A stretch of 61,722 nt of DNA, the filler included, from Dugesia japonica (lineage: Eukaryota), in NCBI GenBank assembly GCA_001938525.1. It is 5 parts of 5 records of this genome, joined end to end, with 100 filler letters (N's around TTAATTAATTAA, not from the genome) between each part and the next. Parts side by side here need not be neighbours in the genome. Positions count along the whole stretch, not along the records: positions 25,473 to 34,931 come from MQRL01400521.1; positions 35,032 to 43,823 come from MQRL01553304.1; 3 more parts are not named here. One strand, written 5' to 3'. A model generated the notes under the pieces. That model saw nothing but the letters and a program-made list of their open reading frames with translations. It was not told the origin of the DNA and did no database searches. Shown here in pieces: positions 461 through 46,900 of the stretch; within the stretch, counting starts at the first letter, position 1, and the number at the start of each line of letters is the position of its first letter. Position numbers and translations under genes: made by a program.

Positions 461-530
461 TAGTCAAAACTTGAAAATAGTGACCAGCAATTTTCAATCA
501 AATATTTAAATCGAGACTAGATTATTGTCA

Positions 531-711
531 AGATTATTGACGAAGACAAGGTCGAAATATTGAATTGTTATCCAATATCAATAAAAAAANNNNNNNNNNN
601 NNNNNNNNNNNNNNNNNNNNNNNNNNNNNNNNNNNNNNNAAATGAATTCTATAAAACGATCAATGGTTATGTCCAACAATTATTCTCGCAATAATTGCAA
701 TTGTAAAAAAA
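531..711 (+). mobile_element. 5'-truncated copy of hammerhead-bearing Penelope-like non-coding element (subfamily A)
   Basis: 13-bp TSD TAGATTATTGTCA at 518-530 and 712-724; degenerate core TTGACGA-A-GAC-AAG-GTC-GAAA-TA-TT-GAAT starting at 537; shared tail GATCAATGGTTATGTCCAACAATTATTCTCGCAATAATTGCAATTGTAAA; contains an N gap. Confidence 0.8.
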
Positions 712-1127
712 TAGATTATTGTCATTTATTTATTTTATTTTTGTCTGTTATGAATGTCATATATTTAAAAGAAATCAAATAAATATTTCTATAGGTCACT
801 GGAGCAATAATTACAGTAATATTCAACAAGCTTAATTATTGTTTAAATGCATATTGATTCCGCTCAGTAATTAATGCAAAATGGGTCATATGGCATGAAT
901 ACGCTTCTAACCACAATGCCATTTAGACGAGTTCATGAGTTTTGAAAAATATAAATATATTTATAACTTTTTTATTATATTATTTAATTCTTGAAAGGAA
1001 TTTGAAATAATTCATCAAACTCCAGATCCAATATTCGCAACACATAGCTAGGTTAACGGGACTAGAAATGTAAATAATTTGTACATGATTTTAAAAAAAA
1101 ATTTATGTTTATCTGAATAAAACGTAC

Positions 1128-8488: not shown

Positions 8489-9148
8489 CTGCTAAATAAT
8501 ATCCAAAACATTTAACCAAAATTAATAGATTTATAATAAATATAAAATCAATGTTTAACAAAAATTAAATTAAATTATAAACTATGATAGTTAGAAAACA
8601 AATATGTTTGGTGATAAAATACATTTATTCTCCAATTTACATGAAAGAAACTATCCTTCAAAATACCGTGTAAATCGATGTTTAAATCAGTTTAAATCGT
8701 TTAAATCACAAACTAATGAAAATACGCATATATACTAATGATATAATTCGAATTGTTATTGCAACGTAAAAATTAATATACATTTTAAGAGAATAGCTAA
8801 AAGTTTTTAAAATTTATTAAATTTTTTTTACAAAAAAAACAAAAAATTGAAATTAAAAAAAATTTTAAATTTTAGAAATTATTTTAGATTGAAAAATTTT
8901 AAATATCAAATTTAATCCGTTTAAAAAATATCAAATAAAACCGTATTTAGTTTTCATTTTTCAGTCAAATAATTTTATTGATTTAATAAATGGATCAGAT
9001 TTTAATAATCAAGCGCCAGTGAAGATTTTCCATATCACACTTTATTAACGAATCAACTTATTTATAAAACTATATCGAATTCATTCATATATTAAATTAT
9101 GACTGTATAAAGCTCTATATGCTAATATTATCAGATAAATGAACTCTT

Positions 9149-9255
9149 TCATTAAAATAAGATAAAACTTCGATCGAAGCTTTATCTTATTTTAATGAAA
9201 TCTCAAATGCGATCAATGGTTAAGTCCAACAATTATTCTCACAATAATTGTAATT
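9149..9255 (+). mobile_element. Minimal fold-back copy of the Penelope-like non-coding element (subfamily B)
   Basis: 14-bp TSD ATAAATGAACTCTT at 9135-9148 and 9256-9269; near-perfect palindrome TTTCATTAAAATAAGATAAAACTTCGA|TCGAAGCTTTATCTTATTTTAATGAAA followed by the shared tail. Confidence 0.85.
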
Positions 9256-10324
9256 ATAAATGAACTCTTCTTTAACGGGTTATAGTTAAAAAAAAAGCAT
9301 AAAATTAATGTGATTTATTAATGAGTAAAAACTAATTTTTATTGAGGTATTTTTATGTGATAATTCAAGTTCTAAGAGAAGAAATATAGTAAAATCTCTT
9401 TAAAATATCACCTCATTAAATATTCGAGTGTTTTTTTGAAAATCGTGTAAAAGCGGAAATGTGTCAATAAAATACCGAGTTCATTGAAAGATGTGTGTTA
9501 AAAATATTACTAATTTAATAACTTTATGAATTGTTAAAGTGTAATGAATTTTGAAATAGGAGATTTTCTTTTAATTTTAATCTATGAAATTTCAATTAAA
9601 TTAAAATTTAGTGAAATTGATTGTAAATACAAACCCAAAAATACAGGTGAAATATTAACACAAAAGCGGCAAATTTAAATTTAATTTTTTACATATTTTA
9701 TTTTAAAAAAAATTATACGCATCTGAGTTGATATCCGGTTTATGAGTCAAGAAATTAATTAAAACAGGTCTAAATTTCTTATTGATAATAAAAATTTAGT
9801 TTTTTGGAGAGAAAATATGTGAAATTCAATTTTAATATCTTTAAGAAAATCGAAATAATAATTATGAACAAATTTATAAACATAATATATAGAAATTTTT
9901 ATGAAATAAAGGAAATAATCAATTTTAACACACAAACATAATACATAAAGTTTAGACAAATTACAATAAAAAGATGATTTATAACAAATAAGATATTATA
10001 TATACATATATAACAAAAATATGTAACGAAAATAAAATAACAAAAGAAGTAGAATAAGACGAAATTATTGGCAATAATGAATTCAATTTTAAGTAATAAT
10101 GAAAATGAGATTAACAGTTATATTCTATTTACAGGGATAAAACTTTTTAAATAAATTTCAATTTATTTATTTATGACATTGGCTGTCCATTAATTATGTT
10201 AACAATTTTCGTGCAATTTTTAACACCTCCTCTCACTTTGTTAACTATCAAATTTTCAGTGACCCTCCTTATACAATTATATCAACAAATATATAGTCGG
10301 ACTGAGTGAAAAACAAAACAATAT

Positions 10325-11444: not shown

Positions 11445-11498
11445 TTTTTTATATTTAACTGGAAAACAATTTTCCTCGTAATTACGACTTCTTTCGAC

Positions 11499-12313: not shown

Positions 12314-12529
12314 TTTCTTCCTGATTTATGATGATCCCGTTAGTTTTGCAAGATGATTGATTATTTCCTCCTACTGTAACAAAAATTGTTGGTTCAATAA
12401 CCCCTTTCGGCGGTTCTTCAGAATTTATGCTCAACATGTACAATCTTTTCTCTCACCTATCCGTGGTTTCTTTTGTACATATTTTTAGCTTTCTGTTTAC
12501 CCAACGCACTTCTTCTCCTTCTTTCATGT

Positions 12530-13265: not shown

Positions 13266-15249
13266 AATTGTTTTCTAAGTTACAAATGATTATAAACTAA
13301 TTACTTGGATAATGCTAAGAATGCTACAACGATTTCCGACTGGATTGTGCTTGCTCCATTGAAGACTTTGAATCTAAACACATTTTAATTTACCCACACT
13401 GCCCAATTTGATTTTACCCTTAGTGTTTATTTTATACCCCCTTATCGTAAGGTCTAGCTAAAAGCTTATATTTTTAATGGTACTTGTTGAAATCACGTCT
13501 GCTTACTCTCCATCTCCGGTTTGTTTTAAATTCGACGTCCTCGTCGAACTCTTTATTAGTTAACTCGGATAGGGCTGTTCATTATCACAGTACTCCTAGG
13601 TTACGTGTATTTCCTATTGGCATCTCCCACTAAAAGGTAAATTCTAATTATTTGTTAATATAACCAGTTTCCCTTATTGCTTGAGTTAACATTTTAGCGT
13701 TTTATTCGCTTATTTTTTTTTGTCCAACCCCAGACTTCCAATTATTTCAGTCATTATCTTTTTGACATCGTTAACATATTTATTTAATAGTTGAGTCATA
13801 GTCCCATTATGTAATTACTATATCATGGTCGTGTTAAATTAAAATTCCTCTAGATAAAATCCAATAAATAACTGAGTCTTGATTGTTTTCCATTAAAATC
13901 TCTTTATTAATTACCATCGTATTTCACCAGGGCCCTCCTTTTAATATTTAAGTCATAATTTGATTAAAATCCATTTCTTTAGAATCGGTTTATTATTTAA
14001 AGTTAATCCTCCTTACTATCATACTCATCAAAGTTCTTTTAATAACTATTTCAATTCTAGCAAACTTCCGAATTTATCTAAAGTGGATTACTATTTACAC
14101 TGTAATCATAAATTAATCATGTTAATGGCTATAATCATGTAAAATCTTTTCAAGGTTTGGGTTATCATCATCTTTGTTTCATCTATCGATCTTATTTTAA
14201 TCATATTTTCCCTAATAACCATTATAATTTATTTAATCGTAATCACTTATGTAAAATCTGTTTAATATTCGTTTTCACATTACATCCAGTTAAAGTATCG
14301 TAATTAACAAAATCCGTCAATATCTAAATCAACATTCAATTCACTATTATATCTTTCTCGCCAAAGTCTCTTTAATCATAATTATGCTCCCTTAAATTGT
14401 GTTGTCTTGTCTGTTCATTTCAACTAGGTTTCTTTTTAATCTTCCTTTATTTTTCATTTTAATTTCCTTAATTAAGTCTTCCTTTATTCTTTCTTTTAAT
14501 TTCCTTAATTAAGTCTTCCTCTATTTCGAAATTACCTATGAAAAATCCTTTTAAACATTTGTATCATAATTTTAGTATGTCATGNNNNNNNNNNNNNNNN
14601 NNNNNNNNNNNNNNNNNNNNNNNNNNNNNNNNNNCTTCCTCTATTTCGAAATTACCTATGAAAAATCCTTTTAAACATTTGTATCATAATTTTAGTATGT
14701 CATGAGTTGTGATCATTATATATATACCTAATCTTTTAATAACAAGGATGCACCAATGAACCATTTCTTTCGAAATCTTTACTAATTTGGCTTTTGCCCT
14801 GCTCTACCGTAAGCGCAATTTAGATAGTTATTACCTTTATGACGTAGTCAATATACCAGCAGTCTCAATCGGGACGGGTCGACGTTTCTTGATCAGATCT
14901 CGACCTATCTGTCCGGCACGTGATTTGTTCAGTGGACGTTCAGATTATCTTTGCAGATCATGAGTAGTCGAGCTACCTGATGTTTCATACAGGTGATCAT
15001 CCATTCCCTGTCGCTCCCTCTTTTTTGTAAGAATCATAAATACTTGGTTGGCTCTTTGTTGCGGACAACAAAGCTGATCGTAACTTTGAAGTCTGGTTGA
15101 TCAGACCAATTTCACAACCTCCAATTCAATATGTATGATTACTGGGATCCCTTATCGCAGAAGGACTTATTACGCTACCAGTGTTCAACATAATAGAGTA
15201 CCCTTTCTAAGTGCAGGCAAACTTTTTATCGTGGCATGCCTAACTGCTC

Positions 15250-15561
15250 TTCCATATTCAGTTTACTTTTTTGATTACACGTGAAGTACCCAGAATAAAT
15301 ATTTCCTTTGATTGTTAACTGTATCACCTTTGTTTAAACATTATTACAAATCAAATTTCTTAATTTTCATAATCTCTTACTAAACTACTTACTTTCTTAG
15401 TCTCCTAATTCTATTTCTTAACTTCTTGCCAGGCTGCTAACAATTTTAAAAGTGGGAGTACCCATTTTGCTGTAATTACATTACATTTAATGGGTGTAAC
15501 GCCACATACATTGGAGAGACTTCCCGTCATCTCTGCACCAGAGTTCAAGAGCATTGTCGAA
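15250..15561 (-). pseudogene. Second, highly degenerate retropepsin-like fragment
   Basis: TMLLNSGAEMT (cf. LLDSGA) ... NVITA ... IFILGT; frames disrupted. Confidence 0.4.
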
Positions 15562-18422: not shown

Positions 18423-18983
18423 ATGGCAACAGAAAAGAAAAAAGACGAAGAAGTAGGATATAATTACACAGCACAAGATCAGATATGGTAATATATAACA
18501 GTTTTAGTAATATAATAAAGATATTAATGATAATAATAATATTAACAACAATAATAATAATAATAAATCAATTTATTTTAGGAAAGATCATTGCACTCAA
18601 GAAATGAAAAAAGCCGAAATTTGGGAGCATAATTGGAGTTTTTTGAAGCAGCCTTATAAAGAGGTACTAAACTTTGTATTTTTTATCTATGTATCTATAA
18701 ACATAAATTTTATTAGATTATCAAAGATGATATGGATAATTTGGTGGACAAAAACCGACCTAAAGCAGAATTACCTATGCATATGCGGGTTCAACCAGCG
18801 ACCCCGAAGAGTAAATACATTTCAGTCAAACCGTCACATACATCATATCCGAAAACTACAAGTGGAGAAGTTGGATGGCGATCTGCTCATAAAGATTTAC
18901 AATTGGAAACGTTTGGAAAATCGAGATTTGCTAAGGGTAGTATTTTGAAACAATTAAATTGGCCAGCTGAAGCTATTGGATAA
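18423..18983 (+). CDS. CIMIP1: Ciliary microtubule inner protein 1 (C20orf85/LLC1 family), 137 aa, 3 exons: 18423-18487, 18582-18663, 18717-18983
   Basis: Spliced product MATEKK...AQDQIWKDHCTQEMKKAEIWEHNWSFL...ELPMHMRVQPATPKSKYI...PKTTSGEVGWRS...KGSILKQLNWP aligns by eye with C20orf85 motifs QDEIWK, NWGFL, PQTTQGFIGWRS, LCWP; GT-AG introns; AATAAA downstream. Confidence 0.92.
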
Positions 18984-22730: not shown

Positions 22731-25073
22731 CACCCATACCTCGCTATACGGGCGCTCTTTATACGGCATTTCGCTATAACGGCCCTCTTAAATTAAGGTA
22801 CGTTTTCGATTTACGTCCTAAAATCTTTCGCTATAATGGCAAAAAAAACTTTTTTTCGATGTCGATATATCTACATGTTGCCAATCTTGCGCAAGCACAA
22901 TCTCGATGCACACTCTTTTTTATTTCCTCTTGTTTACGAGCGTTATTCAGTGTGTGCTCATAAAGCGGCTGCTTTAAACTTGTCTGTGAGTGTTTTATGT
23001 ACATATTTATTACTGATTGTTACACATTAACACATTTTTGGTACGTAAGTACATATGTTTGTATGTACAGATTAAAAATTTTTAAAATGTATTTTTTTAT
23101 TAAACTTATTTTATAATTTCATTATTTTTTAAATAAAATGCCACCGAAACGATTATCGACTTCAGAGACTGATAAAAAGAGATGTCGAAAATCAGTCACG
23201 CTAGGAACTAAACTAGAAGTATTACGTCGTATAGAAGCTGGAGAGAAAATTATAGAAATTTGCAAGACAATGGGACTTGCGAAATCTACCATTCAAACTA
23301 TTCGTGATAAAAAAAGAAGACAGTAAAACATATGTGCAATCTGCTGCACCTTTAAATGTCTCGAGATTAACACGCCAAAGAAACTGGATTATGGAAAAAA
23401 TGGAAAAACTATTGATTATATGGATTGAGGACAATAACAAACGGAGAATGCCAATGAGTCATATGACTATCCAGCATTAAGTATTTTCGAAAATTTGAAG
23501 AATGGAGATACCGATGAATCTGCTGAAGATGTCATATTCCAAGCAAGCCGAGGATGGCTTGAAAAATTGAAAAATAGAATATTTTGCATAATTTGAAAAT
23601 GAAAGGTGAAGAAGCTAGCGCCGATGAGGCCGCATCTAAGGAATATCCAAACATTTTAAAGGGACTTATTGAAATAGGTGGTTATAAACCTGAACAAGTG
23701 TTTAATTTAGAAAAACAGGGCTTTATTGGAAGCGAATGCCTGATCGCAGGTACATTTCAAAAACCGAAAAATCTGCCCCTGGTTATAAAGAACGATTAAC
23801 TTTGATACTTGGTGCAAATGCGGCGGGTGATTTTACGCTTAAACCACTTTTAATATATTTGTCCAAAAATACAAGGCCTCTTAAAGGACTAAATAAAAAT
23901 CAATTACCCGTCATATGGAGATCCAACAAGAAAGCTTGGATGACTAAAGCTACTTTTGAGGATTGGTTCAAAAATCACTTTTGTACAGAAGTGAAAAAAT
24001 ATTTGCGAGACAATAACTTAGGCAACAAGGTTTTGCTAATTTTGAATAATGCACCAGGGCATCCTACTAATTTATCCAAACTATCTGAAGATGTCATGAT
24101 TAAGTACCTTCCGAAAAATACATCAGCTCTAATTTAACCAATGGATCAGGGTGTATATTACCTATTAAGGCATATTACCTACGCCGAACTTTCCGACAAC
24201 TTATAAGGGAAATCGATGATAAATCTTCAATTAAAACATTTTGAAAAAACTATAACATCAAAGATGCTGTTGACAGCATCAGTGAATCATGGAAGGAATT
24301 AAAATTAACAACAATGGACCATGTTTGGAAAGAAATATGGCCAGAATGCGTAAAATGTACTGATGCAGATGTTAATTTCCTTCCTGAAATTAAGCAAAAC
24401 ATTTTGAATCTAGCACATGATCTCGGCTTTGAAGGTTTGAACGAACGTGATGTGCTTGATTTACTTGAAGCTGATAGGGAACCCTTTTCATATGAGGAAC
24501 TCATTCAGTTGCAAGCAGAACCGACATTTGACAAAGAGACAGAGCTACTTGTATCCAAACAGCTAACATCAAAAAATTTGTCAAAAGCTTTTTACTATTT
24601 CAAACAAGGAATAAACATCCTCCTTGAAAACGATCCTGACGTCGAATGTAGCGTTAAAGTTTCTAGAGGAATTAAATCAGCCGTTAGCTGTTATAAATCA
24701 CTGAAGAAATAAGAAGGCAAGTCAAACAACGTTGGACAATTTTTTTAAGTCAGTCCCATCCTTACCAGCGAAGAATGATGACGACAGTGATCTACAGGTT
24801 ACTATTTCTTCATCGTCTTCAGATTAAAGCCATTTAAAAAAGAATTATGTCTATTATTATTTTATGTACAAATGTATGTACTAGTTATCTATGTATTTTT
24901 GATTTAAATGAAATAAAAAGATAAAATGCATTTTGAATGATAAACCATGTTACATATTTAACAAATTTGGAACCGATCCCATCGAATTTGTGTAAATTTG
25001 TATTAGAATAATTGATTCCTTATACGGTTTTTGGTCGTGGAACGTATCTAGGCCGTAAAGCGAGGTATGGGTG
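22731..25073 (+). mobile_element. Full-length pogo/Tigger DNA transposon
   Basis: 21-bp TIRs CACCCATACCTCGCTATACGG / CCGTAAAGCGAGGTATGGGTG (1 mismatch), TA TSD on both sides. Confidence 0.95.
23138..24827 (+). pseudogene. Tigger/CENP-B-like transposase, frameshifted
   Basis: [23 protein letters not shown]; FQASRGW; KERLTLILGANAAGDFTLKPLLIY; WRSNKKAWMT; LILNNAPGHP (catalytic D replaced by N); LI*PMDQG; several stops and frameshifts. Confidence 0.93.
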
Positions 25074-25832: not shown

Positions 25833-28800
25833 ATTCAAAATTAATCCAACGTAGTCCTTCAAAAAGAAGTGCAAGTAGTGAAGGTCGAAAATCAGTATCA
25901 AATTCGTTTTCAATAAACGAATCTCATAATCAGTTATCACCACATTATATTAGGAGTGGAATAGGATCGGTGCCATCACAATTAAACATTCATCCATGGT
26001 CTGATGATACTAATCATAATACATCTCTAAATCATACCGCTGCTGCCTGGGTGACATATGCTCAGCAACAAGCTGCTGCTGCTGCTTATATGGATCCACA
26101 AGTAATATTAATTTTTAGAATTTTCTTTGGCTTGTAAATTATTAATTTTTGCTATTTTGTAAAACTTTAGNNNNNNNNNNNNNNNNNNNNNNNNNNTTAA
26201 ACATATTTTTAGTTAAAATTTGATGTCTGTTGATTTTATAATGTTTTATATTAATGAAATTTGAGAATATGTAAAGCAAATATCTAATTTCTTTAATTTA
26301 AATTTCTTTAGTCCCTATAAAATGTCGTCAGTTTAATTCAGGAAAGGTTTGCTGGTTGTAATAGCTGTAAATTTTACAAGTGAAATATTTTTATATTTTA
26401 TTGGCTGGTTTCAGTTTGTGTCTCTATAGAGTCCAAAATTTTCCAATTTCTTGTGCTTGTTTTCAACGGAGTGCAATTTTTATCGGAATTACTTATATCT
26501 CTGTGAGAAAAGCAAAAATCGTAGATTTGGATTGTTCTAAATATGCTAAAAAATATTGATAAGTTGTGTGCTGAATTTATAGGCAGATTTTAGGAAATAT
26601 GAAAGTATTTTCTCAGTTATTATATGTTATTAGATAATAGTTATTAGACTGTTATCAAAGTGAGCTAATTGATTTGAAGCCTGATATGAACTTGAAAAGA
26701 GCATATGGTAACTTTCTACAAAAAATTATGTATCTTAGGAAGATGACGTCACTTTTTGGCAGTAAATATTGCTTCAAAGTAGATAGCGAATTCAGCGCAT
26801 AGAAGAACATCCCGCATTCAGTTTCGTATTGCCACCACATCAGTCAAAGTTGACATTAATAAATTGTACCAAAATACAAAATACCAAATTTCGTATTAAT
26901 TAAAGTAAATGGTGTTTAATTACCTTTTTGATAACTAGTGCATTGTACTTCATAACTCAATACGCTAGTTATCAATAGATTATAATCTTTACATGTTTTT
27001 ACGGTAACTGGTACCAGTAGTTGTTCCAATGCTCGAATGAGCCCTATCAATGGAAAATATTGCATACCCCTGTTTTAATTGCTTTCGATTCTCTTGTTCA
27101 TTATGTTAATTATGTATTTTCCTTGATTGTCGTTCATTGTATTTGAGGTATGATGTTCTTATATTCTATATTAGTTGCTAGGTTTCTGTTTTGACTGATA
27201 ATTGCTTATTACCATGGATTTCTTTTCTTAATCATGTACTGGTATGTCTGATCCATTTAATCTGATTTCTACTTAATTTTCTCTGGTTAAATTCCAATTC
27301 CACAATTTTTATTTAAAATATTTACTTAGTGGCCATAAATTTTGCTTTTATATCTTAATTGAAATATCTTTTATTTAGAATTCATTAAAAATAAAAGCTT
27401 CGATCAAAAAATTTTATATTGTTTTTTTGAGATTGATTCGATATTTCGACTAATGTCTTCGTCAGGAATTGACTTTTCCTGAGTCAATTCCTGACGAAGA
27501 CATAAGTCGAAATATCGAATCAATCTCAAAAAAACAATAAAAAAATTTTTTGATCGAAGCTTTTATTTTAAATGAATTCTAAAAAATGATCAATGGTTAC
27601 GTCCAACAATTATTCTCGCAATAATTGCAATTGTAAAATCTTTTATTTGATATAGAATTATTCCTCGCATAATGTTTATTATGTTATTTAGTTTCCATTA
27701 TATTTTATGTTTACATTTATTGAAATAAATAATAACTTCAATTCGTGAGTTTATTATTAAATAATTAAAGATAACAATATATGATTATAGTGTATTCCGT
27801 ATACTTAAAAATTGTACTCGTTTGAAATGGTAACAGTCCTTATTAATTAACTTGAGTATAAGTAAAAATATCTAAAATTTTGACAAACATGGGCATTAGT
27901 AATTTATTTAGTAAATAACAATTAAATAATTGAATGTCACAAATAATTAGGAAATATGTAAATACATACGAACGTGTCGACACATACAGCAGAGAAAAAC
28001 CACTTGCGATATTTTGATAGAAAGGAATAGAAGAAAGTCTTGAGATGAAACTTGGATTACTTTAGGATTACATTTTGGTAATCCTAAGCGTGAAAGATCG
28101 TGGGTTGATCCAAATTATTCGACAAATTCAATCGCAAAACGCTAATTTTCATGGGGAAAAGTGCTATTGTGTTGGTAGTGGGATCAAAAATGTATTTTGT
28201 ACTAGGACCTACTGAAACCATTAGAAACAGTTACTGATAATCGTTATGAATATCAAATAATGAAATTAAATCATAAACAATTAAATCCTCGCAGCAAAAT
28301 GACCAGAATAGGCTACCAAGCATGGAACAGTGATATTGCTGCACGATAACTTCCGGGCTCATATTGCAAAACCTGTCAAAGGCAAGTGGAAAGAGCTGAA
28401 ATAGGAAGTCGTACCATACCCCATCTACTCAGAAGACATTGGTCCGTCGCATGTTCACTTGTTCCAGTCGATGGCACACGGTCTATTGGAGCAGAGCTTC
28501 ACGAATGATGAAGATTTCAAAAAACGGGTAGATAATTGAAATGCTTCGAAACAAGATCAATTCTTCCATGATAGAATGCATAAATTATCCAAAATTTTGG
28601 GAAATGTTTGAAATTATATGTAAGAAAAATTNAACTTGACTTTTTTCCTTGTCATTGATTTTTTAAATCGTAAAAATCGGTAGTCATACTGTACATCTAA
28701 TAAATAAAGAATAAGATAATGATGAAATATAATCATCTCTGGATGCAGTGGCGTAGCTACAGGGAAGCAATGCTTTCGGGCCCCCGGCTTTAAGGAGCCC

Positions 28801-31148
28801 ATTTAAAAATTTATTTATTTATTTATGAAAAAATCATATATTTAATTAGCTTTTTTTGTTTAATAAATAATAATTAATAATAAATACCGTTTCTAAATAT
28901 TAAAATATCAAATACATTTATTTATTTTAAATTAAATTATAACTACAAAATGATATTATTAAATTATCATACACGTAACTTCATCTATTGGTTTCTGAAT
29001 AAATAAAAAAAATGTTAGTTTGTATTTACTAATGGGCGTAAAAAATCTAGTTACGCCAGTGGCTGGATTATTAAAATATAATTGCTAATCAAATTCTGCT
29101 ATATCAATTAAAACTTTCTTAATTTGAGTTGAATAATTTATTACTTAGTTTGGTTTCTTTGATGGAATATTGAATAGATTATTTTACTTCCATCTATTTG
29201 TTATTTTGTGTACATTTAGTTGTGTTAATCGATGTTTTGTACTTTATGGCTACACATTTATATGATTTTATTATCTGTATATTTTATTGATAGTGATTTT
29301 GCTTTCCAACATATTTAAAGTTCTCAAATTTCACTTTCTTTTAAACGCATTTCTTAATTCTTATTATGGATGTCTATAAATTTAATGGTAAGTACTAGAC
29401 TATTTTACAACCAACAAAATTGTATAGAAATTCACACAAATTTCTGGGGTTTTCATATTACTGTTTAAATACCTAATTCTTCAGAAATTCTTGTAATTAC
29501 ATCATACAAGCATCCATTATTTTAGTGGAAAGTATGATTGATTTATTTTTTCGATTTTTATTTTCTTTGTATTTTTAAATACTTTCACTCTTGTATGTTT
29601 AAAATGTAATATTTTTTATTCTTTTTACGTAATTTTATAATTTACATTTGAAATGTTTGCTGTGGAAATTTATCGTGACTAAATCGTAGAACCTTCTTAA
29701 ATTTAATTCTACTTTTAAAAATTTTTTTATATTGTTCTATATTGGATATATTTTTGTTAGTCATCATAGTTATAAAGTTTTCTTACGGTGGCAATGTATC
29801 AAAACATTTTTAAAGAAATTATTTTTGTTCATCAAGTAAAGAGTAAATTGATAATAATAAATACGATAATTGTGAATAATTTTCTCAGCATTACAATTTT
29901 AAATTCAATTTAATTAATTACTAATTATGAATTAAAATTTATCTAATCATTTAGATGAAAGCCTATTACAATTTGGCTTTGTCGCAGTCTATGTTGAATA
30001 ATCCATATTGTGGGTCTTATGGAAATCCTGCTGCCAATTCAGAAAATTTTTATTCTTCTCTTCATTCTCAGTATTTGAATAATTCAAAAGAATCAAGTGA
30101 AAAAATAAATATATCAAACGGTGGTGTTAGAAATCACAATGATCCCATGGGAACTTTCATGGAAGCTGCCCAAATGTCATCCTGGGAACATTTTTATTCT
30201 GCTGCAGCTATGGCCGGCTATCATAATTCATCACAGGGTGCAATGGATGAATATGCTGGTAAATAATTTAGTAGTATGTTTTAAATATTAATTTTAAAAA
30301 ATTATTTTCACAAATTTCCTTAAAACAATTTACCCTGAGTCATCCAGCTTTTTCTCTACAAATTATTTAAATTCACTATAAACTTTGTCTATCCTACAAC
30401 TAATTATGCTTAAGCTTGTAAAGAAACAAAAATCTTTAATAGTCAAAATTTAATGATAGTTGATGGTAAATCATGTTTTGGCTTATTTGACGACAAGGCC
30501 TTATTTTCAGAGAAACATGGTTATAAATTTAAAATTTCCAAATAATTTAAGTTATGCGTAATAAATACTCACATTTATTATAGTTCTGAAATAAGACTTG
30601 CAAGAACATTCATAATAAATGTACACTATAAAATAATGTTATAGTTATAACATTATTTCAGAACAACATATTTTGAAAAGATCAAAAGCGCTTTTTGAAG
30701 CAAAAATTAATATAGAACCGAGCTTATTTAACATGGTTTTTATTTTCGATAAATAACTTTGTTCTTTTTGAATTTGTTGATTTACTTGACGTATATCGAA
30801 ACATTTTTCTAATTACATTCTTAATGTTCAAACTTTGATGATACTATTTTAAAGGTCGAGCTGGAAATATGTTACAAGCTCATCATATGCTTGCGAATGG
30901 ATATCCTGGTTCAATGCTTGGAAGGGACCATTTTTCTATAGAAAATAATAAACCACCACTAGCACATCAGAATCAGTCTGGATCAACATCCCCAATTAAA
31001 TTAACTGCAGCTAGTTCAACTCCAGTGTCATCTTCACAGGCGGCGTATTCTCATGTTCAAATGCCTTATAGTCACTTCAGTGGTACAACTGTTGGTAATT
31101 TAGTTAATTTATGGAAATAATATTTTAACTACTTTAGGTTTTTTCTAA
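25833..31148 (+). CDS. 3' part of an unidentified gene with S/A/Q/Y/H-rich low-complexity C-terminus (transcription-factor-like); exons 25833-26101, 29955-30258, 30855-31094, 31138-31148
   Basis: Four phase-compatible AG/GT-bounded exons give ...AAAWVTYAQQQAAAAAYMDPQ|MKAYYNLAL...MDEYAG|RAGNMLQAH...YSHFSGTTVG|FF*; 5' end lost at the scaffold edge. Confidence 0.75.
27377..27637 (+). mobile_element. Fold-back Penelope-like non-coding element (subfamily A) with a hammerhead in each arm
   Basis: ~100-bp inverted arms (27374-27474 / 27482-27583) plus ~55-bp tail; 11-bp TSD ATCTTTTATTT at 27366-27376 and 27638-27648. Confidence 0.9.
27487..27520 (+). ncRNA. Minimal type I hammerhead ribozyme motif
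   Basis: AUUC-CUGACGA-A-GAC-AUAA-GUC-GAAA-UA-UC-GAAU: stem I AUUC/GAAU, stem II GAC/GUC, palindromic AUAU stem III, AUC cleavage triplet; mirrored on the minus strand at ~27436-27469. Confidence 0.78.
27940..28620 (+). pseudogene. Mos1-like mariner transposase relic
   Basis: LLKPLETVTDNRY...HIAKPVK...EVVPYPIYSEDIGPSHVHLFQSMAHGL...FFHDRMHKL. Confidence 0.85.
28746..29061. mobile_element. hAT-type MITE
   Basis: TIR CAGTGGCGTAGCTA / TAGTTACGCCAGTG; degenerate 8-bp TSD TCTGGATG / GCTGGATT. Confidence 0.75.
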
Positions 31149-31476
31149 TAATCTCAATGTGATGAAACTCGACAAAGCATAACACTTTTCCTTTATTAAA
31201 TGATCTCGTTTTGTACATAATTGTATAGCTTGATATTGATTTAATAACATGTATTATTTTAACTGCAAATTATCAGAATGTCATTGTTTTCCCATGATAC
31301 AGTGTTAAATTCGTATATGGAATTTTCAATGTATTTAAAAATTTCTAGTCATCAAAAATTGAAATTTTATTAAAATTTGTATTTTGATTTTTATTATACA
31401 TTATTAAATACAAAATAAATTCAATTATAATTTGTAATGAGGCATTCAAATCACTTAAAATATTATTATTTATAAA

Positions 31477-32201
31477 TCATTTAGCAATATTTTGAGCAGC
31501 ATTGTTTGTATTTATTGGTTCTTCATATTCTTCGTCTGAAATTGGTGGAGGTCCATAAGCAGCAAAGAAAAAGGCATCCTTTAGTTAACAAATATTAATA
31601 TTATGAATCGTAAATTTTCTAACCCGCATAGTAGACACTAAAGATCCCACTTTACTTTCAACCTCTTTATAAGCATTTGATTCCCTTGAAATTAATTTAG
31701 AAAATTAAACAAAGTGACAAATATATAACTTTGCTTCATGTAATTTTTTGCTCACAATATCTTTAGTTTCTAAAACAGCATTGGACGTTTTATCTTTGGC
31801 AGATGACAATACTTCAACAGTTTTATGATATCTATCAAAAATTAATACGCAACAACTTTATCAATTACATACGTAGCAGATTCCTTAATACTTTTAATAC
31901 CAGTTTGCAAATCTGTTTGTATTTCATCAAGAATGGTGTAACCCAATTTGCTTTTCAGTTCAGCTTCATGGTGTAGTTTTAAAGATAGATTAATGCGTAA
32001 TTCAGAAATTTCTTCTTGGGTCTATAAATTGCAACAATTATCATAAAAAATCTACGCATTTTACTCTTTTTAATTCTTCCTCTAATTTGTCTCTATCAAT
32101 TAGTTTGGAGTTAGTCTAAAAATATTTAAGCACAAATATTTTCAATATCTTTTTACATTTACAGATGAACTTTCAATTAAAGAATCATATGAATCTAACA
32201 T
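31477..32201 (-). CDS. TPD52: Tumor protein D52-family coiled-coil protein, 6 exons with ~40-45 bp introns
   Basis: Spliced: ...DRDKLEEELKRTQEEISELRINLSLKLHHEAELKSKLGYTILDEIQTDLQTGIKSIKESATYHKTVEVLSSAKDKTS...VSKKLHEAKESNAYKEVESKVG...; matches the D52 pattern EEIxTLRQVLxxKExxxxELKRKLG and YxKTxExLS; all introns GT-AG. Confidence 0.9.
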
Positions 32202-32949
32202 AATTAACGAGGCAATCTTTAATCTAAACTTTGCAGCTAAACAATAATTCAAATATATTTTCTTATAATTTGCTATAAACAAATTTACTTTAAATGAACA
32301 AAACATAAAAATTTGCTTTTATTGAAAGTAAAAATTTCAATAAAATTCATTTTTAAGATCCAACTTTACTTTTAAACTTAATATGAAAAATGTTGGTTTC
32401 AAAAAAAATCTTAATTTTTATAATAAATGATTTATTCTCTTATCGAATAAATTAACTTGTTTCTTAAATAAAAATTAATGCAAATTCTATTTATTAAAAA
32501 CATGATATCATGGACGCACGTTCTCTCCATCTCGATTGCAATCTTTGTGATTTTGTCCTGCAGTTGCGAGTCCATTTGATTAGCGCTGCTAGTTGACCTT
32601 TTGTGATATCGCTAAAATTCTTCATATCTTGCGGTGTATACCCATTAAGTAACGTTTATTGGTATAATTAAACGATAATCAATGTTGCAAGAATTAATGA
32701 CGAACAAATTTTGAACTCCATAAATTGTGAACGACCATTATTCGATAGCTAATTTGTTAACTATACCTATTAGTACGAAAATAATAGTGATTGAATAGTA
32801 ATGCAATGATGATTTCAATACGATTTGAGAATGTTTGAGAAAATCAAATTAAAATCGACTAAATATGCATGCGCTCACATACATGAACAAAACTTTTATA
32901 TTGTTATTTAATTATTGTTATTTAATTAATTGTAAACTAATATTAGAAA

Positions 32950-33792
32950 ATCTCAATTAATCATGAACGAATATTAAGAATTTTGACATATATTCTGAAT
33001 AAGTACGGTTTTCGAAGTTATTCAGCAATTAAGAAGCCATATTTGAAATTGCATCAACATTTCAGAAGACTTTCCTGGGCCATGACTTACAGTTGTTAGG
33101 ATGCAGATAAATGGGGTGATGTTGTATTCAGCGACGAGTGTATCTTTCAGTCATTCGTCATCAAGTAAATTATTGATTCGAAGAAACACATTGTAAAAAT
33201 ACAATACTACCTTTATCCAAGCAGTTATGCGACATACATGTATGGGGCTGCTTCAACAGTAAAGGAGTTGGATTTCTGAAAAGAATCAATGGAAATATGA
33301 ATGCTGAGAAATATCAAAAAGAGATACTTCATGATATAGACATAGTTGGTAAATTTTTAGTCTTTCCAAAAGCAGCATTCGTTTTTCAACATGATTTGGC
33401 TCCATCACATATCGCCAAAAGTTCATAAGCATTCCTAAAAAATAAAAATATTGATGTCTTATCCTGGCCAGGTAATTCTCCTGACCTGAATCCTATTGAA
33501 AATATCTGAGGTATCTTTAAACGGAAAGTAAGACCAATGATATACAATTCTGCTGAAGAATTATGGAATGAGATCCAAAGTGACTGGTAAAAACTTTCTA
33601 GTAATCTATCCAGGAAAATTATATTCTCGATGTCAAAAAGATTAGAATTGGTCAAAAAATCAAAAGCACATCCTATTAAATATTAAGACTATCATGTATT
33701 TATTTATTTATTAAATTTCCAGGCTGAAAAAATTCATTCCAATTAAAATTTGTATTTGTTATAGGGGGTGAACAGACTTTTTACGAGTACTG
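32950..33792 (+). mobile_element. Tc1 (DD34E) transposon relic, 3' half
   Basis: FSDEC...NMNAEKYQKEIL...FQHDLAPSH...WPGNSPDLNPIENI with 34 residues between D and E; right end ...GAGTACTG followed by TA. Confidence 0.88.
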
Positions 33793-33899
33793 TATAAACA
33801 TTTTATACGACTGGATAAACTCAATTAATATTTGAGAACAGAATCTTTTATGGAAATGAGTTTTGAAATTAATTATCCAATGAGTACTTTAAACTCATC

Positions 33900-34790
33900 T
33901 TACATGGTGGCAGCGGTTAACACCGATGCAATCACAGATAGATTGTTGATAAAAATATTTTTCAGAAGCGATTATCTAAGGAAGTTTATTAAATATATTT
34001 GAAATATATTTCGGGGCGAAGAACATAGTAATTAAGAAAGATCAGGAGCGTTTAATAACATTTGTGGCTGATGAAGATTTAATGGAAGCATTTGTAAAAA
34101 TATTGAAGAAAGCTGACGGATATCGGAGAGTTTGCGATTAGCTTTAAAGGGCAATAGAAAGGCAATAAAACATTTTGCAACTATTGGGGTGGTGGTGAAT
34201 ACTTTGTGGTGTTCTTCAAAAAAGTGGAAGATTTGGTCTATAAAATTTTAGCAAATGGAGAGCTGACGAAAGATAAACTCTTATCAAAAATGCTAATAAT
34301 TTGTGTAGATATTAAAAATGCATAAGAAGAAATAATCATGCAGAAATGGGAGAAAGTAGAAGATATTAAAGAAACACTGTCATTAATTAAAAAATTAGAA
34401 AGAAAAGAACCTAAAGACGCAGTCAAGAGTTATGCAGGTGTAGCACATGGAGAACGTACGAGAGAGAAGAGACAAAATATTGAGAGAGTTACGAAAAGAA
34501 CAGTGTTAGACATGCCAGAGTTATGGGCACACAAAACGAGAGTGTTTAAAAAATCACAAGTGGAATGTTAAACTTGCAACAAGAAAAGGCAAAAAGTGAA
34601 GTAGAAATTTCGCCGACAAGAAGCCACCAAAATGTTTTGGGTGTGGTAAGATTGGTAATATCAGAAGGATGTGTACAGAAATTGTATGCGGTAGATGTAA
34701 ATGACCAAGTCACAAAGCAGAAGAATGTCATTTGAAACTTAATAAATTAAGATTAGAATAAAGAAGATACAATTTTAAAAGCAGGCAACA
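33900..34790 (+). mobile_element. Gypsy-like LTR element relic: LTR end, PBS and decayed gag with CCHC knuckles
   Basis: ...TTACA followed by TGGTGGCAGCGG (tRNA primer-binding-site-like) at 33905; CFGCGKIGNIRRMC and CGRCK*PSHKAEEC. Confidence 0.72.
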
Positions 34791-34931
34791 AACGAAAGAT
34801 TAAGTCAGACCTAACAAATCCATGCTTTCTCTCTTTTATTCGTTTTCGTCATCATTGCTTTTGTTGGGGTTTAACTTAGGTGGGCTGATTTTTTAAGATT
34901 AGGTCTAGGGCCTTAAAAAAACCCGTGAGTA

Positions 34932-35031
34932 NNNNNNNNNNNNNNNNNNNNNNNNNNNNNNNNNNNNNNNNNNNNTTAATTAATTAANNNNNNNNNNNNN
35001 NNNNNNNNNNNNNNNNNNNNNNNNNNNNNNN
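34932..35031. other. Artificial scaffold-concatenation linker
   Basis: N44-TTAATTAATTAA-N44. Confidence 0.97.
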
Positions 35032-35302
35032 AATTTTTAATAATTTTTAATGAAAATCCAAGATTTATTTTTTCAACAAATCTTTTATATCTAATTATGA
35101 TTTCATGGTTTTTTAAATAATTTAACACGCCATTTAATTAAAAAAATTTTTGACACAACAAGTTTCGACAGTGTATATCTCTGTCATCTTCAGGCAAACT
35201 GTTTAAAACGACGAATAGAGTATATATACTTAAGTTCCGAATTATGTAATCAATTATGCAATAGTCTCAATTGATTACATAATGTGGAACTTAAGTATAT
35301 AT

Positions 35303-36162
35303 TTCATTAAAATAAGATAAAGCTTCGATCATAACAAAATTTATTTGTAAAAAAGTTCAAATTTTCGACAATAGNNNNNNNNNNNNNNNNNNNNNNNNNN
35401 NNNNNNNNNNNNNNNNNNNNNNNNNNNNNNNNNNNNNNNNNNATTCTTTAAATTTTATCAAAATTTTATTGGTTTATTTTTTTTAAATTTAATAATTTTT
35501 ATTTTTAAATCAACTCAAAAAATTTTCAAAAAACTTTTTTTGATTAATACAGAGAAGTCTTTTAGATATTATTGATATATTATACTTAGAATTTTTTAAT
35601 TTTAATTTTTTTGTAATTATTTTTGAAAATTTTTAATTTTTTAAAATGTTTTTTTAATTTTTAATTTTGTTTTGTGTTTTTTATACATATAATTTATGTT
35701 ATAAATATTATTTTTTAGAAAAATTTCTTTATTAAAATTCATTCAAAAATGAACTAATTTTACACAATATTATAAAATTAATTTTTTTCTGAACTAAAAG
35801 TTTTTAAAATTTCTTTAAAATTAGTATTAGGATAACTAATTAATATATTAATCAAAAAAATTTTTTTGAAAATTTTTTGAGTTGATTTAAAAATNNNNNN
35901 NNNNNNNNNNNNNNNNNNNNNNNNNNNNNNNNNNNNNNNNNNNNNNNNNNNNNNNNNNNNNNNNNNNNNNNNNNNNNNNNNNNNNNNNNNNNNNNNNNNN
36001 NAAGAAGCCAACATGTTCCTGAAGAAGACTATTGTCGAAAATTTGAACTTTTTTACGAATAAATTTTGTTTTGATTGAAGCTTTATCTTATTTCAATGAA
36101 ATCTCAAATGCGATCAATGGTTAATTCCAACAATTATTCTCACAATAATTGTAATTATAAAA
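35303..36162 (+). mobile_element. Long fold-back copy of the Penelope-like element (subfamily B) nested in the second family
   Basis: 12-bp TSD TTAAGTATATAT at 35291-35302 and 36163-36174; inverted arms 35303-35374 / 36029-36100 and 35501-35549 / 35846-35894; shared tail. Confidence 0.88.
36015..36048 (+). ncRNA. Minimal type I hammerhead ribozyme motif (variant)
   Basis: GUUC-CUGAAGA-A-GAC-UAUU-GUC-GAAA-AU-UU-GAAC: stem I GUUC/GAAC and palindromic AAUU, both covarying with the 27487 copy. Confidence 0.72.
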
Positions 36163-37497
36163 TTAAGTATATATACTCTATTCTTCGTTTTAAGCAGTTT
36201 GCCTGAAGAAAACAGATATACTGTCGAAACTTGTTGTGTCAAATAAATATTTAATTGAATGGCGTGTTAAATTATTTATTATTTTTTGTTGTATAATTTA
36301 AAATTTATTTATTGAAAATGACTATTAATTTCAAATAATAATAATTCGTTAAAATTTCTAAACAAAATTGAGAATGTGTAAAATAAATTAAAATCCGAAA
36401 TTTAAAGGAAAAAATAGATTTTCCAGGAAAGATTTAATCCGAATTACTCATCGTTAAGTTGAAGAAATATCGAAAACTATCTGAAAATAACAGTTGTTGA
36501 TAACATTTTGAAATTTCTTTTTCCTTCATCAATTTAAAATTAAGTGATTTTTAATTAATTTCAAATAATTTAAATAGTTATTTTTAATAATTGTAAATTT
36601 TATGAAAATAAATATTTCAATAATAATTTTCAGGTGTAAATGTTTTCATTAAATTATATTTTACATGTTTTATAATCGGAAACAATTACATTTTCTTTTC
36701 GTATAATTTTACAATGGTTTTTAATATGGAGAGTAAATTATAATTATTATTATTATTAATTAAAATGAATACTTAGGCAAAAAAATTTCTGAATTTTTAA
36801 TAGAAAATTTTAATCAATAGGCTGTCATTTAATAATAATAATAATAACAACAATAATAATAAGAATAATAAGAATATTCTTAATACAAACAATAATTAAA
36901 AATCAAACATATTAACGAACTCTTAATAATATATTCTAATATCATAAAATAATTCATAATTAAATATGCTAACAAAGACTCAGAAAAATTAACCAGAATT
37001 ATTTTTGTTCGTGAATAAATAGATTATTTCCTCCTTAAAATACGACCTACGTCATATGAAAACTGTAGATCTGTAAATAAGATTAAATATAACCCCAATT
37101 CTTACTAAATTGGCAAATACATCGGCGTGTCGCCGTGAATAATAAAATTTATTATTATCAATAGAAATATTTTTAGTTTGTTTTAGTTTTATAACATATC
37201 TTCGTTTTTATTTTATTTAGCTTCCTTTGATAATGAAAATCAGTTATAAGAGCAAATAAAATAAGCGTTAAGTTGAAGTTATTATGTTGGTGATAAGAAA
37301 TAAATGTCAACTTAAATTTCACGGATATTCAATGAATCAATTGATTTTCAATATTGAGAATTTAGATTTATTGATCAGGAAGTTTTATTTCAAATTAATA
37401 CGCTAATTTACCTTGTTAAGTAATAATATGTAGCTTACTTTCCTTTTAATTTCAATTTATTTCCATTTTAAAAGTAATACTTTTATTATATTTATTA

Positions 37498-41708: not shown

Positions 41709-42140
<432 letters not shown>

Positions 42141-43147
42141 TCTAACAAAGGATTTTTAAATAATAATATTTTAAATTGGATTTTTAGAATCTTATGCAAG
42201 TTTATAAATCAAATTTGACTTCTTAATTAGAAAGCTGTATGAAAGAAAATATGAAATGAATAAAATATTCCGATTTTTAAAAAAATGACTTATAATAATG
42301 TTTTTTTCCTTTTGACTTTTCATTTATTCTTATTATTTGTTTACTCCATGTTTAAACTTTCCATAAAAATTAAACATAACAATTAAAAACCTTTTATGTA
42401 AATATACTTCAAAAATCTACAAAACTCAAAAATTCATCAAATTGTTGTTTGTCTTTTATTGACTTCTTGGAGTTTTTCTAAATTTGATTAAAATTCTGGC
42501 AGATTATGTTAATCGTTTATCAAGAACCTATCTTTACCAAACTCATTAGGTTTATTAATATGCAACTTGACTTCAAAAAATGTTATTGTTGGCTCCATAA
42601 TAATTTTTTGGATTGTATTTTTCTTTTCAAAGCAATCCACCGCGACAGTCTCTTCTTCTTCCTAACGCTTATCAAAAAGTCGACTATTAATGATTTTTAG
42701 AGCTCATTTTCATTTTTAAAAATTCTTCAAAAACAACATCTTTCCCATCAATTCCGATAGTTCAGCACTTGTTGTTTCGGACTTGCCAAGTTTCAATGAT
42801 TGGAAAATTGTTTTTATAGCAACTAAGAACTAAGATTTTGATGAAGATGTGAAGATTTCATTTCTCTTTTATTTTTTTCTGATTTGTTTCTTCATTGAAT
42901 TTTCTACTGGAGCAATAGTTATATGTTTAATCCATTCTATCGTTTGTTGCTTTGATTGGTTTTATACAAACTAAAAGATTTTAGTTTAAAGAAATATTCT
43001 GAGAAATATCATTTTTAAAATGACATTGGAGTGTTTTGATTTTAGAATTCTTTTTGAAATCATAAGAAAAAGCAATTTTTTTTCTATTTAAAATTTATCG
43101 TGTTCTTTTTTGATTGAAACTATTTTATCTAAACTATTTATATTTAA

Positions 43148-43607: not shown

Positions 43608-43700
43608 AGATTTCATTAAACTAAATTAATAGCTTTGATCAAATTAAATTGTTGTTTTATAGATATTCAAATTTCCGACAATTGCTTTCTTCAGGAATAT
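43608..43700 (-). mobile_element. Degenerate inverted arm of the hammerhead-bearing element
   Basis: Reverse complement reads ATTC-CTGAAGA-A-AGC-AATT-GTC-GGAA-AT-TT-GAAT ... TTGATCAAAGCT...TAATGAAATCT; partner arm probably lost at the scaffold end. Confidence 0.65.
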
Positions 43701-43923: not shown

Positions 43924-46900
43924 TTTCTATTGCATTGAGTATTTTTTAACTCTAAACCTTTGAGTAAATATTAACTTTATTGCATTGAGTAACTTAGTAC
44001 TATATACCTTTGAGTAAATAATAACTATATAGCATTGGTACCTTATATTTATATACCATTGAGTAAATTATAAAATTATCGCATTAAGTAACTTAAAACT
44101 ATATAGCATTGAGTAACGTATAACTATATATCAGTACGTAAACAATAACTTTATAGCACTGAGTAACTTATAACTATATAGCATTGAGGAAATAATTCTT
44201 ATGTAGCATAAAGTAGGTTATAAATATATACTATTGACTTAATAATAATTGTATAGAATTAAGTACCTTATAACTATATTACATTGAGTAAATAACTATA
44301 TAGCATTGAGTAACGTATAATTATATAGCATTGAGTAAATAATAACAAACAAGCATTGAGTAACTTATAGCTATATAGCATTGAGTAACCAATAACTGTA
44401 TAGCATTGAGTAACTTATAACTATATACCATTGAGTAAATAATAACAATATAGATTGAGTTACTTATAACTATATACTTTTAAGAAAAAATAACTATATT
44501 GCGTTGAGTAATTTATAACTATAAAACATTGAGTAAATAATACCTATTTAGCATTGATGAACTTATACCTATATACCTTTAAGAAATTATAACTATATAG
44601 CATTGAATAACTTATAACTATAATCATTGAGTAAATAATAACTATATAGCACTGAGTAACTTATAACTATTTATCATTGAGAAAAAAACAACTATATACC
44701 ATTGCGTAACTTATAGCTATATACCATTCAGTATAAAATAACTATATATAACATAAAGAACGTTATAACTTTAAACCATAGAATAAATAATAAATATAAA
44801 GAATTAAGTAACTTATAACTATATAACACTGAGTAAATAACTATATAGCATTGAGAAACTTTTTATTGTAAATCAATGAGTATATAATAACTATATAGCA
44901 TTGAGTAACTTATAACTATATTTACGATTAAGTAAATAATAACTCTATAGAACCGAGTAACTAATTACTATGAAGAATTGAGTTAATAATAATTGTATAT
45001 AGCATAAAGTACGTTATAACTATAAACCATTGAGTATATAATAATTATATAAAATTAAGTAACTTATAACTATATTACATTGAGTAAATAACTATATAGC
45101 ACTGAGTAACTTATAATTATATAGCATTGAGTAAATAATAACTAATTGGCATTAAGTAACTTTTAACTATATAGCAATGAGTTACTTATAACTATATAGC
45201 ATTGAATAACTTATAACTATATACCATTGAGTAAATAATAACTATATAGCATTGAGTAACTTAGAACTATATACATAAGAGTAAATAACAACTATATAGC
45301 ATTGAGTAACTAATAACTATATGTCATTAAGTAACTTATAACTATAAAACATTGAGTAATTTATAACTATATAGCATTGAGTAACTTATAATTATATGCC
45401 ATTAAGTAAATAATAACTATTAAGCACCGAGTAAGTTACTCAACGCTCTATAGTTATTATTAACTCAATGGTATATAGTTATAAGTTACTCAAATCTAAA
45501 TATTAATTATTTACTCAATGGTTAATAGTTATACGTTACTTAATGCGATATCGTTATTATTTACTTAATGGTATATAGTAAGACGTTACTCTATGCTATA
45601 AAGTTATTATTTACTCAATGGTATACAGTTATAAGTTACTCAATGCTTTAAAGTTATTATTTACTCAAATGTATATAGTTATAAGTTACTTAATGCTATA
45701 TAGTTATTATTTATTCAATGGTAAATATTTATAAGTTACTTAATGCGATATATTTATTATTTACTCAATGGTATATAGTTATATGTTACTCAATGATATA
45801 TAGTTATTATTTACTCAATGGCATGTAGTTATAATTTACCTAATGCTTTATAGTTATTCTTCACTCAATGGCATTAAGTTATAAGTTACTTATTGCTTTT
45901 TAGTTATTATTTACTCAATGGTATATAGTTATATACTTATATAGTTAAATAACTATATAAGTATAAGTTACTCAATGCTTTATATTTATTATTTACTCAA
46001 TGGTTTATAGTTATATACTTATATAGTTATACTAGTATATAGTTATAAGTTACTCAATGCTTATCAGTTATTTTTTACTTAATGCTATATAGTTATTACT
46101 TACTCAATGCTATATAGTTATAATTTACTTAATGCTTTATAGTTATAAGGATCTTAAATACTATATAGTTATTATTTACTCAATGGTATATAGTTATAAG
46201 TTACTCAATGATTAACAATTATTATTTACTCAATGCTATATAGTTATTATTTACTTAATCCTATATACTTATAAGTTAAGCAATGCTATATTGTTATAAC
46301 TTACTCAATGCTTTACAGTTATTATTTACTCAATGCTATATAGTTATACGTTTCTCAAGGTTATATTTTTATTATTTACTCAATAGTATATATCTATACG
46401 TTACTCAATGCTATATCGTTGTTATTTACTCAATGCTATATAGTTATACTTTACTCAATGATCTTTAGTTATTATTTACTCAATGCTATATAATTATAAT
46501 TTATTCATTGCTATATACTTATAAGATACTTTATGCTATATAATTATTATTTACTCAATGGTATATATATATAAGTTAATCAATGCTATATAGTTTTGAT
46601 TTACTTAATGCTATATAGTTATAATTTACTCAACGCTATAAAGTTATTATTTACTCAATGGTATATAGTTATAAGTTACTCAATTCTTTATAGTTATTAT
46701 TTGCTCAAAAGTATATAGTTATTAGTTACTCAATGCTATATAGTTATTATTTACTCAATGGTATATAGTTATAAACTAGTCAATGCTATATAATTATTAT
46801 TTTCCCAATTGTATATAGTTATAAGTTAGTCAATGCTATATAGTTATTATTTACTCAATGGTATATAGATATAAGTTACTTAATGCCATATAGTTATTAT

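Follow-up and report, generated by a model that had tools for sequence, protein, structure and literature searches.

Two hammerhead motifs, here called copy A and copy B, lie in a 61,722-nucleotide stretch of Dugesia japonica DNA (assembly GCA_001938525.1; five parts of five records joined end to end with filler between them), which we refer to as the window. Both are very probably minimal type I hammerheads carried in truncated, head-to-head end-pieces of a single abundant repeat family, likely a Penelope-like one, with a fold that would have been kept by selection on active master elements, whose RNA would be cut as a dimer or with the help of protein. Minimal hammerhead ribozymes (min-HHR) in the pseudo-long terminal repeats (pLTRs) of metazoan Penelope-like elements were described by Cervera and de la Pena (2014, PMC4209133), their general traits being covariation within a genome, an extra base, a G10.1-C11.1 pair, a palindrome, and motifs paired on opposite strands at a spacing of about 100-700 bp.

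Three intact motifs are present in the window:
27487..27520, plus strand: copy A, minimal type I hammerhead with AUAU palindrome, AUC triplet and predicted cut at 27516/27517
36015..36048, plus strand: copy B, minimal type I hammerhead with AAUU palindrome, UUU triplet and predicted cut at 36044/36045
27436..27469, minus strand: inverted-arm copy of A, loop AUUA, in the same insertion as A

The motif is 34 nucleotides (nt) long in A and B, with a stem I of 4 bp and a stem II of 3 bp that closes a 4-nt loop. Copy A begins with stem I strand AUUC, core CUGACGA (N7=C), an extra A, stem II GAC/GUC and loop AUAA, and continues with GAA, its palindrome, C17 and stem I strand GAAU; the corresponding parts of copy B are GUUC, CUGAAGA (N7=A), an extra A, GAC/GUC, UAUU, GAA, its palindrome, U17 and GAAC. 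The catalytic core (C3-U4-G5-A6-N7-G8-A9, G12-A13-A14, A15.1-U16.1 and H17) is complete in all three motifs, the extra base lies between 9 and 10.1 beside the G10.1-C11.1 pair, and positions 15.2-16.2 are palindromic with no loop 3 or a tiny one. The same combination of core (CUGANGA/GAAA), extra base, G10.1-C11.1, 4-bp stem I and palindromic 15.2-16.2 characterizes the min-HHR of PMC4209133, where, by our hand count of Fig. S3, 40 of the 41 loop-less entries are palindromic; the AUAU-C state appears there in Nematostella 1 and Latimeria 2, and the AAUU-U state in Crassostrea gigas.

A full descriptor (core, stem II of at least 3 bp, palindromic stem III, UH, and stem I of at least 3 bp) has three matches in the window against none in 300 shuffles, the third being the intact inverted arm of A; the core with stem II also gives three matches, against none in 100 shuffles. 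Rfam returned no hammerhead match at A or B; only the truncated copy D, described below, scores, on RF03152 and below the gathering threshold (26.7 bits, threshold 56.3, E 3); its rows for mir-1256 and snoRNAs were set aside as chance-level matches. The features and coordinates that an original prediction, made from the sequence alone, had assigned to A and B were right letter for letter, including the predicted cuts. It had noted the UUU triplet of B as usually weak; UUU is called a poor substrate in PMC6908138. Its count of two clean copies holds for A and B, both intact, but leaves out the third at 27436-27469.

The repeat family carrying the motifs

Self-comparison of the window places A and B in a dispersed repeat family with five loci, A to E, whose parts are:
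27366..27648, unstranded: whole A insertion, with 11-bp target duplication (27366-27376 / 27638-27648), tailless inverted arm and tailed direct arm
27581..27637, plus strand: tail of A, 57 nt, on the direct arm only, with the shared long 3' end at 27637
35291..36174, unstranded: whole B insertion, with 12-bp target duplication (35291-35302 / 36163-36174) and two N gaps
35303..35374, minus strand: inverted arm of B, its hammerhead 3' half identical to B and its 5' half in an assembly gap
36096..36162, plus strand: tail of B, containing an ATG that opens a frame of 22 codons, with the 3' end of the family at 36162-36166
43665..43698, minus strand: copy C, decayed, with A-type outer stem I pair (A-U) and B-type palindrome AAUU
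518..724, plus strand: copy D, 5'-truncated near the core, with A-type palindrome, U17 and 13-bp target duplication (518-530 / 712-724)
9135..9269, plus strand: copy E, tail and short inverted arm with no hammerhead, 14-bp target duplication (9135-9148 / 9256-9269)

Target duplications of 11-14 bp are thus found at four of the five loci (A, B, D and E), and a duplication of at least 11 bp between two 31-nt windows has a chance probability of 0.2%, these windows having been placed at ends already seen. Copy C, in which A13 has changed to G and stem II is damaged, has no convincing target duplication in the flank comparison. Head-to-head inverted arms occur in both the A and B insertions, the spacer of the latter (35443-35894) being self-inverted; measured from the cut site, inverted arms extend for about 55-65 nt and direct ones for about 120 nt, and the tail of 57-62 nt stands on one side only. 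This layout of an inverted 5'-truncated arm with a tail at one end, seen in A, B and E, is the Penelope type. In the tail, 22 codons are open from the ATG in B, E and D (in D up to its end), with a stop in A, and this frame is possibly the start of the element's open reading frame (ORF).

The insertions resemble those of Penelope elements described by Arkhipova et al. (2013, PMC3846280) and Craig et al. (2021, PMC8557442) in the head-to-head 5'-truncated arm, the junction palindrome, the one-end tail, the target duplication and insertion into another Penelope-like copy; the duplications there are 8-10 bp long, as against 11-14 bp here. They also recall the Poseidon element PAc of Anolis carolinensis (Frangieh et al. 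2024, PMC11167929), whose tail has been explained by two reverse-transcription starts, in the position of the hammerhead close to the junction of pLTR and ORF, in a tail defined by two internal 3' ends and in AT-rich targets. The PAc ORF opens at stem II, whereas the candidate ATG of the A/B family lies 51 nt past the cut; PAc was assayed, whereas the A/B family is known here from sequence. With the families of PMC4209133 the A/B family shares compensatory changes, motifs paired on opposite strands and the many solitary motifs that truncated copies leave; no linked ORF was found for it in the window, and it was matched to no entry of Fig. S3. Non-LTR retrozymes (LTR, long terminal repeat; PMC7229834; bioRxiv 10.64898/2026.07.22.740005) share with the A/B family a type I hammerhead in a non-coding repeat and a relationship to Penelope pLTRs. 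An assignment to them was rejected, since retrozymes form head-to-tail tandem arrays, whereas the A/B copies are scattered, lie head-to-head and show no tandem array at their loci. From its sequence organization the family is likely a Penelope-like retroelement.

Abundance was examined by read mapping in four of 24 sequencing runs, on 36002-36330 (the B locus) only. Run X4 has 21,848 contigs on this interval. Their summed depth (not taken as copy number) is highest over the hammerhead and the tail, and beyond 36166 it is about 70-fold lower. At least 910 of these contigs, in four loose-end rows, break off at 36162-36166 with mixed flanks, which implies at least hundreds of insertions sharing one 3' end. 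Variants in run X11 (organism B) resemble those of X4 at about 1% of its depth and, as possible carry-over, were not counted as independent. The end-pieces of this very abundant repeat in which A and B sit are short and likely dead.

Differences between the copies

Ten of the 34 positions distinguish copy A from copy B, and the differences spare the core (0/11), fill the free positions (6/7) and touch the stems (4/16) in a form that preserves them, all four stem differences making up two compensated Watson-Crick pairs. These counts confirm the original proposal that the differences fall in free positions or preserve pairing while the core is invariant. In simulations, the probability that four stem changes make up two compensated Watson-Crick pairs was 0.0017-0.0038 and that they break no pair (G-U allowed) 0.008-0.033; the core was spared by 10 random differences with P 0.009, and everything remained intact with P 5e-6 to 4e-5. 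The motif overall (24/34 identical) is conserved no better than the tail (72/92), so the signal lies in the placing of the changes; the linker directly downstream is identical at only 13 of 30 positions, which indicates that the A and B subfamilies are deeply diverged.

The remaining copies extend this comparison. Because copy C pairs an A-type stem I with a B-type palindrome, the two pair changes were separate events, and the palindrome is in one of its two states in all six window copies that have that part. Sliding the pairing partners lowers the paired cells from 95.6% to 6-48%. A covariation score on the five window copies, matched in 9 of 500 shuffles, is inflated by related rows, since A and its inverted arm represent one event and the stem I cells of copy D, whose first five alignment columns are probably re-copied target DNA, are non-homologous. 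A longer stem I, which A, B and D would allow, was not accepted, as it joins unrelated sequences, partly across insertion junctions.

The compensations could in principle be a chance pattern, picked post hoc from two repeat copies and owing nothing to structural selection, and three results lean that way: the compensated events number only two, the pair-count test on the five window copies (two pairs with both partners changed, a count attained in 84 of 500 shuffles) is not significant, and the 34-mers, folded in isolation, are no more stable than shuffled sequences (z +0.39 and -1.15). The structure, however, was taken from a published template and not from the A and B sequences, and chance would have to produce the stem pattern (P 0.002-0.004), the intactness of the whole, the two palindrome states in six of six copies and the loss of pairing on sliding, so that we consider it highly improbable. 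Selection on the hammerhead fold fits the pattern of A/B differences and is supported by it. The original prediction had inferred selection on the ribozyme structure; the difference pattern agrees with this, but such selection most likely acted on master elements and not on copies A and B. Covariation within a genome together with palindromic 15.2-16.2 is already published in PMC4209133.

Cleavage, selection and the fate of the copies

In the mechanism we propose, which draws on PMC4209133, PMC11167929 and PMC6765202, active master elements would cut their own RNA by means of the motif, either with the help of protein or as a double hammerhead in which stems I and III would form between two motifs, and selection on these masters would keep the core and the pairing while free positions change. 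Reverse transcription would start at either of two sites, one about 55-65 nt and the other about 120 nt beyond the cut, which would account for an inverted arm that is short and a direct arm that has the tail, and the truncated copies in the window would be passengers, silenced by their own inverted arms. Copy A and its inverted arm are predicted to form a 110-bp hairpin (-141 kcal/mol), the probability of A's own hammerhead stems falling to about 0 on both strands, and B with its inverted arm a duplex of -90.7 kcal/mol; since each copy is predicted to pair with its own inverted arm, neither is expected to be active in read-through RNA. By these models, A and B are probably passengers, and cuts at 27517 and 36045 are unlikely.

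The two copies differ in exactly the helices that are intermolecular in the double-hammerhead model (I and III) and not in stem II, on which ground own-kind dimerization may be proposed for each subfamily; modelled active dimers have energies of -0.4 (AA), -3.6 (BB) and +3.1 kcal/mol (AB). That the two compensated pairs form a self-recognition code, by which each subfamily would dimerize and cut only with its own kind, seems to us doubtful. If true, competing Penelope subfamilies would insulate their RNA processing from one another, and the inverted arm would silence copies in host introns. A literature search, which did not cover bioRxiv supplements or the likeliest source (Lunse et al. 2017), found no publication on heterodimers of Penelope hammerheads.

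Several observations, together with the three that lean toward chance, weigh against our interpretation. As to the element itself, no reverse transcriptase (RT) or GIY-YIG frame adjoins any copy in the window, so that Penelope membership rests on architecture and no clade is assigned; a GIY-YIG-like fragment at 15450-15560 (plus strand) is unlinked and weak (Pfam E 0.043) and runs into an assembly gap, with no hammerhead found after it. Scans of viral and prokaryotic collections with the tail pattern gave no match and no full element. The tail of 57-62 nt exceeds the 30-40 nt of PMC3846280 and PMC8557442, the 3-bp stem II is at the lower end of the range in PMC4209133 (C. briggsae has 3 bp, most have 4-8), and the short 3' end is absent among the loose-end rows listed, 542 further rows existing. 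As to cleavage, the AA and BB dimers are marginally stable, with minimum-energy alternatives at -8.3 and -11.0 kcal/mol, a marginality in line with the low activity reported in the literature. No pile-up of read starts or ends was found at 36045 or elsewhere in about 470 reads of X22 and six of X21, a weak test with such libraries. One result from the reads counts in favor of the interpretation: among the 40 of 116 variant rows listed, none falls inside 36015-36048, whereas 11 of the 52 flanking positions carry one (Fisher P 0.003; P 0.01 if two B-private changes are left out). Against this depletion, left-edge seeding may favor matching reads, and up to 10 X4 variants of at least 5% could lie in the motif among the other 76 rows, which, judging from those listed, appear to be the ones under about 20%. 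The variant table carries no haplotypes and has no bearing on covariation.

All six X4 T>C variants of at least 5% lie outside the B motif, which implies that U17, and with it the UUU triplet, is the state of the B subfamily and not decay of copy B, adding a poor substrate (PMC6908138) to the points against. This fixation in B-like DNA favors a reading that keeps the Penelope-like origin but gives the fold a non-catalytic role, as a binding site for the element's protein or as a DNA-level palindrome, B no longer cutting. The RNA reads without cleavage ends at B fit this reading, as does the anole element, which inserts in vitro without cleavage and likewise has no RNA-seq reads ending at its cut site (PMC11167929), and hammerhead function is called unclear in PMC8557442. 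Against it, all 11 catalytic core letters have been kept while six of seven free positions changed, the oyster motif, which is linked to Penelope, shows the same AAUU-U state, U17 is a frequent state among the motifs of Fig. S3 in PMC4209133, and the anole motif does cut once protein is added (PMC11167929). We judge a purely non-catalytic role unlikely and retain selection on cleaving masters.

Copy A may also be considered in its host context, since its insertion would lie in the first intron of a candidate host gene:
25833..31094, plus strand: three candidate host exons (about 25833-26101, 29955-30258 and 30855-31094) with matching splice phases

No homolog was found for exon 2, and no upstream conserved domain in the window; the candidate exons are of low complexity and weakly trachealess-like (atlas 0.88), which is a lead only. 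The host genome reads as AT-rich and animal-like, with a possible arthropod affinity that is likewise no more than a lead. Among the sequencing runs, none with RNA was listed for 26200-28600, which speaks neither for nor against transcription there. The sense orientation of A in this candidate intron, the intactness of A and B and the coverage of the family by RNA reads would suit host-adopted working ribozymes, for example one that cuts the host pre-mRNA whose intron holds A. Yet both copies are predicted to pair with their inverted arms, they are only two among at least hundreds of insertions, their sisters C and D are no longer whole, being decayed or truncated, and 91% of the X22 reads continue into unlike flanks and cannot be assigned to the A or B locus. 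Host adoption therefore seems to us very improbable, and the passenger status of A and B is preferred. A narrow literature query found no publication on the insect/intron combination of such hammerheads.

In X22 poly(A) reads, variants at 36011, 36049, 36062, 36068 and 36085 stand at 58-94%, as against 3-18% of summed DNA contig depth. Transcribed copies thus seem to come from subfamilies other than the most abundant one, a lead only, contig depth being a poor measure.

Other hammerhead families, neighboring features and implications

The B locus also holds a second, rarer family:
35154..35196, minus strand: second-family hammerhead-like motif, with 5-bp stem II, non-palindromic UU loop 3 and AUG at the start of stem II
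36200..36238, plus strand: partner copy of that motif, G10.1 lost

This family is arranged head-to-head at 35114-35302 (minus strand) and 36166-36278 (plus strand), and the B element has inserted into its inverted repeat and split it. Its stem I is weak, with two G-U pairs, and it has no convincing target duplication. Its AUG at stem II (35193), a placing shared with the anole Poseidon element, accounts for about 99% of X4 depth. A tandem unit of two hammerheads (36015 and 36200) was rejected, because the target duplication of B and the 70-fold drop in depth show that B inserted into a separate family.

At the level of the class, a metagenome scan that fixed only the core and stem II found at least 123 loci, 121 of which had enough flank and formed 83 clusters, some related to each other. 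Among those listed, a stem III followed by UH is present in 22 clusters (control mean 12.8, P 0.007) and is palindromic in 14 (4.7 in controls), and 12 of these 22 have a stem I of at least 4 bp, against a mean of 1.4 and a maximum of 7 in 20,000 flank swaps. On two contigs (loci L031/L032 and L070/L071) an RT frame is flanked by direct repeats, 3.9 and 4.6 kb apart, that carry the motif; the two RT frames are 32% identical, that of L031 scores 0.97 to RT clusters in the atlas, and Pfam, NCBIfam and PDB gave neither a name. Matches of copy A to these loci by BLAST, among those listed, are the 22-nt core or short AT-rich pieces, so the metagenome loci test the class and not the A/B family. Belonging to other families, they show that this geometry of the core is accompanied by the hammerhead fold and by RT elements. 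A scan of viral sequences with the core pattern gave one match, which lacks stem I.

The two RT-bearing pairs have a hammerhead with a long stem III, and their direct repeats flank an upstream ORF and the RT frame, as in Penelope-like elements of protists and fungi. Loci L025 and L078 carry a motif with an AGGCCU palindrome ahead of a long unnamed ORF.

Elsewhere in the window are a 25-bp satellite of more than 600 copies (43928-59623, orientation switching at about 45435), remnants of an LTR retrotransposon (gag and protease by Pfam; 10518-13296, minus strand), a DDE_1 transposase (Pfam; 23117-24712, plus strand) and an LLC1-domain fragment (18717-18983, plus strand; Pfam E 8e-20). A frame at 60084-60819 (minus strand), with no database match, looks like part of a Maverick/Polinton capsid, and a fragment at 41961-42155 (minus strand), with no Pfam match, resembles ribosomal protein S23.

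The A/B family adds an abundant member to a documented class, in which hammerheads have been paired with Penelope elements since the 2014 description. Its significance is modest and lies in the material that it offers for three questions about Penelope hammerheads that await an answer: can a UUU site cut when stem II has 3 bp, do palindrome switches prevent the cross-dimerizing of subfamilies, and do inverted arms render sense-strand intronic copies of the ribozyme harmless?

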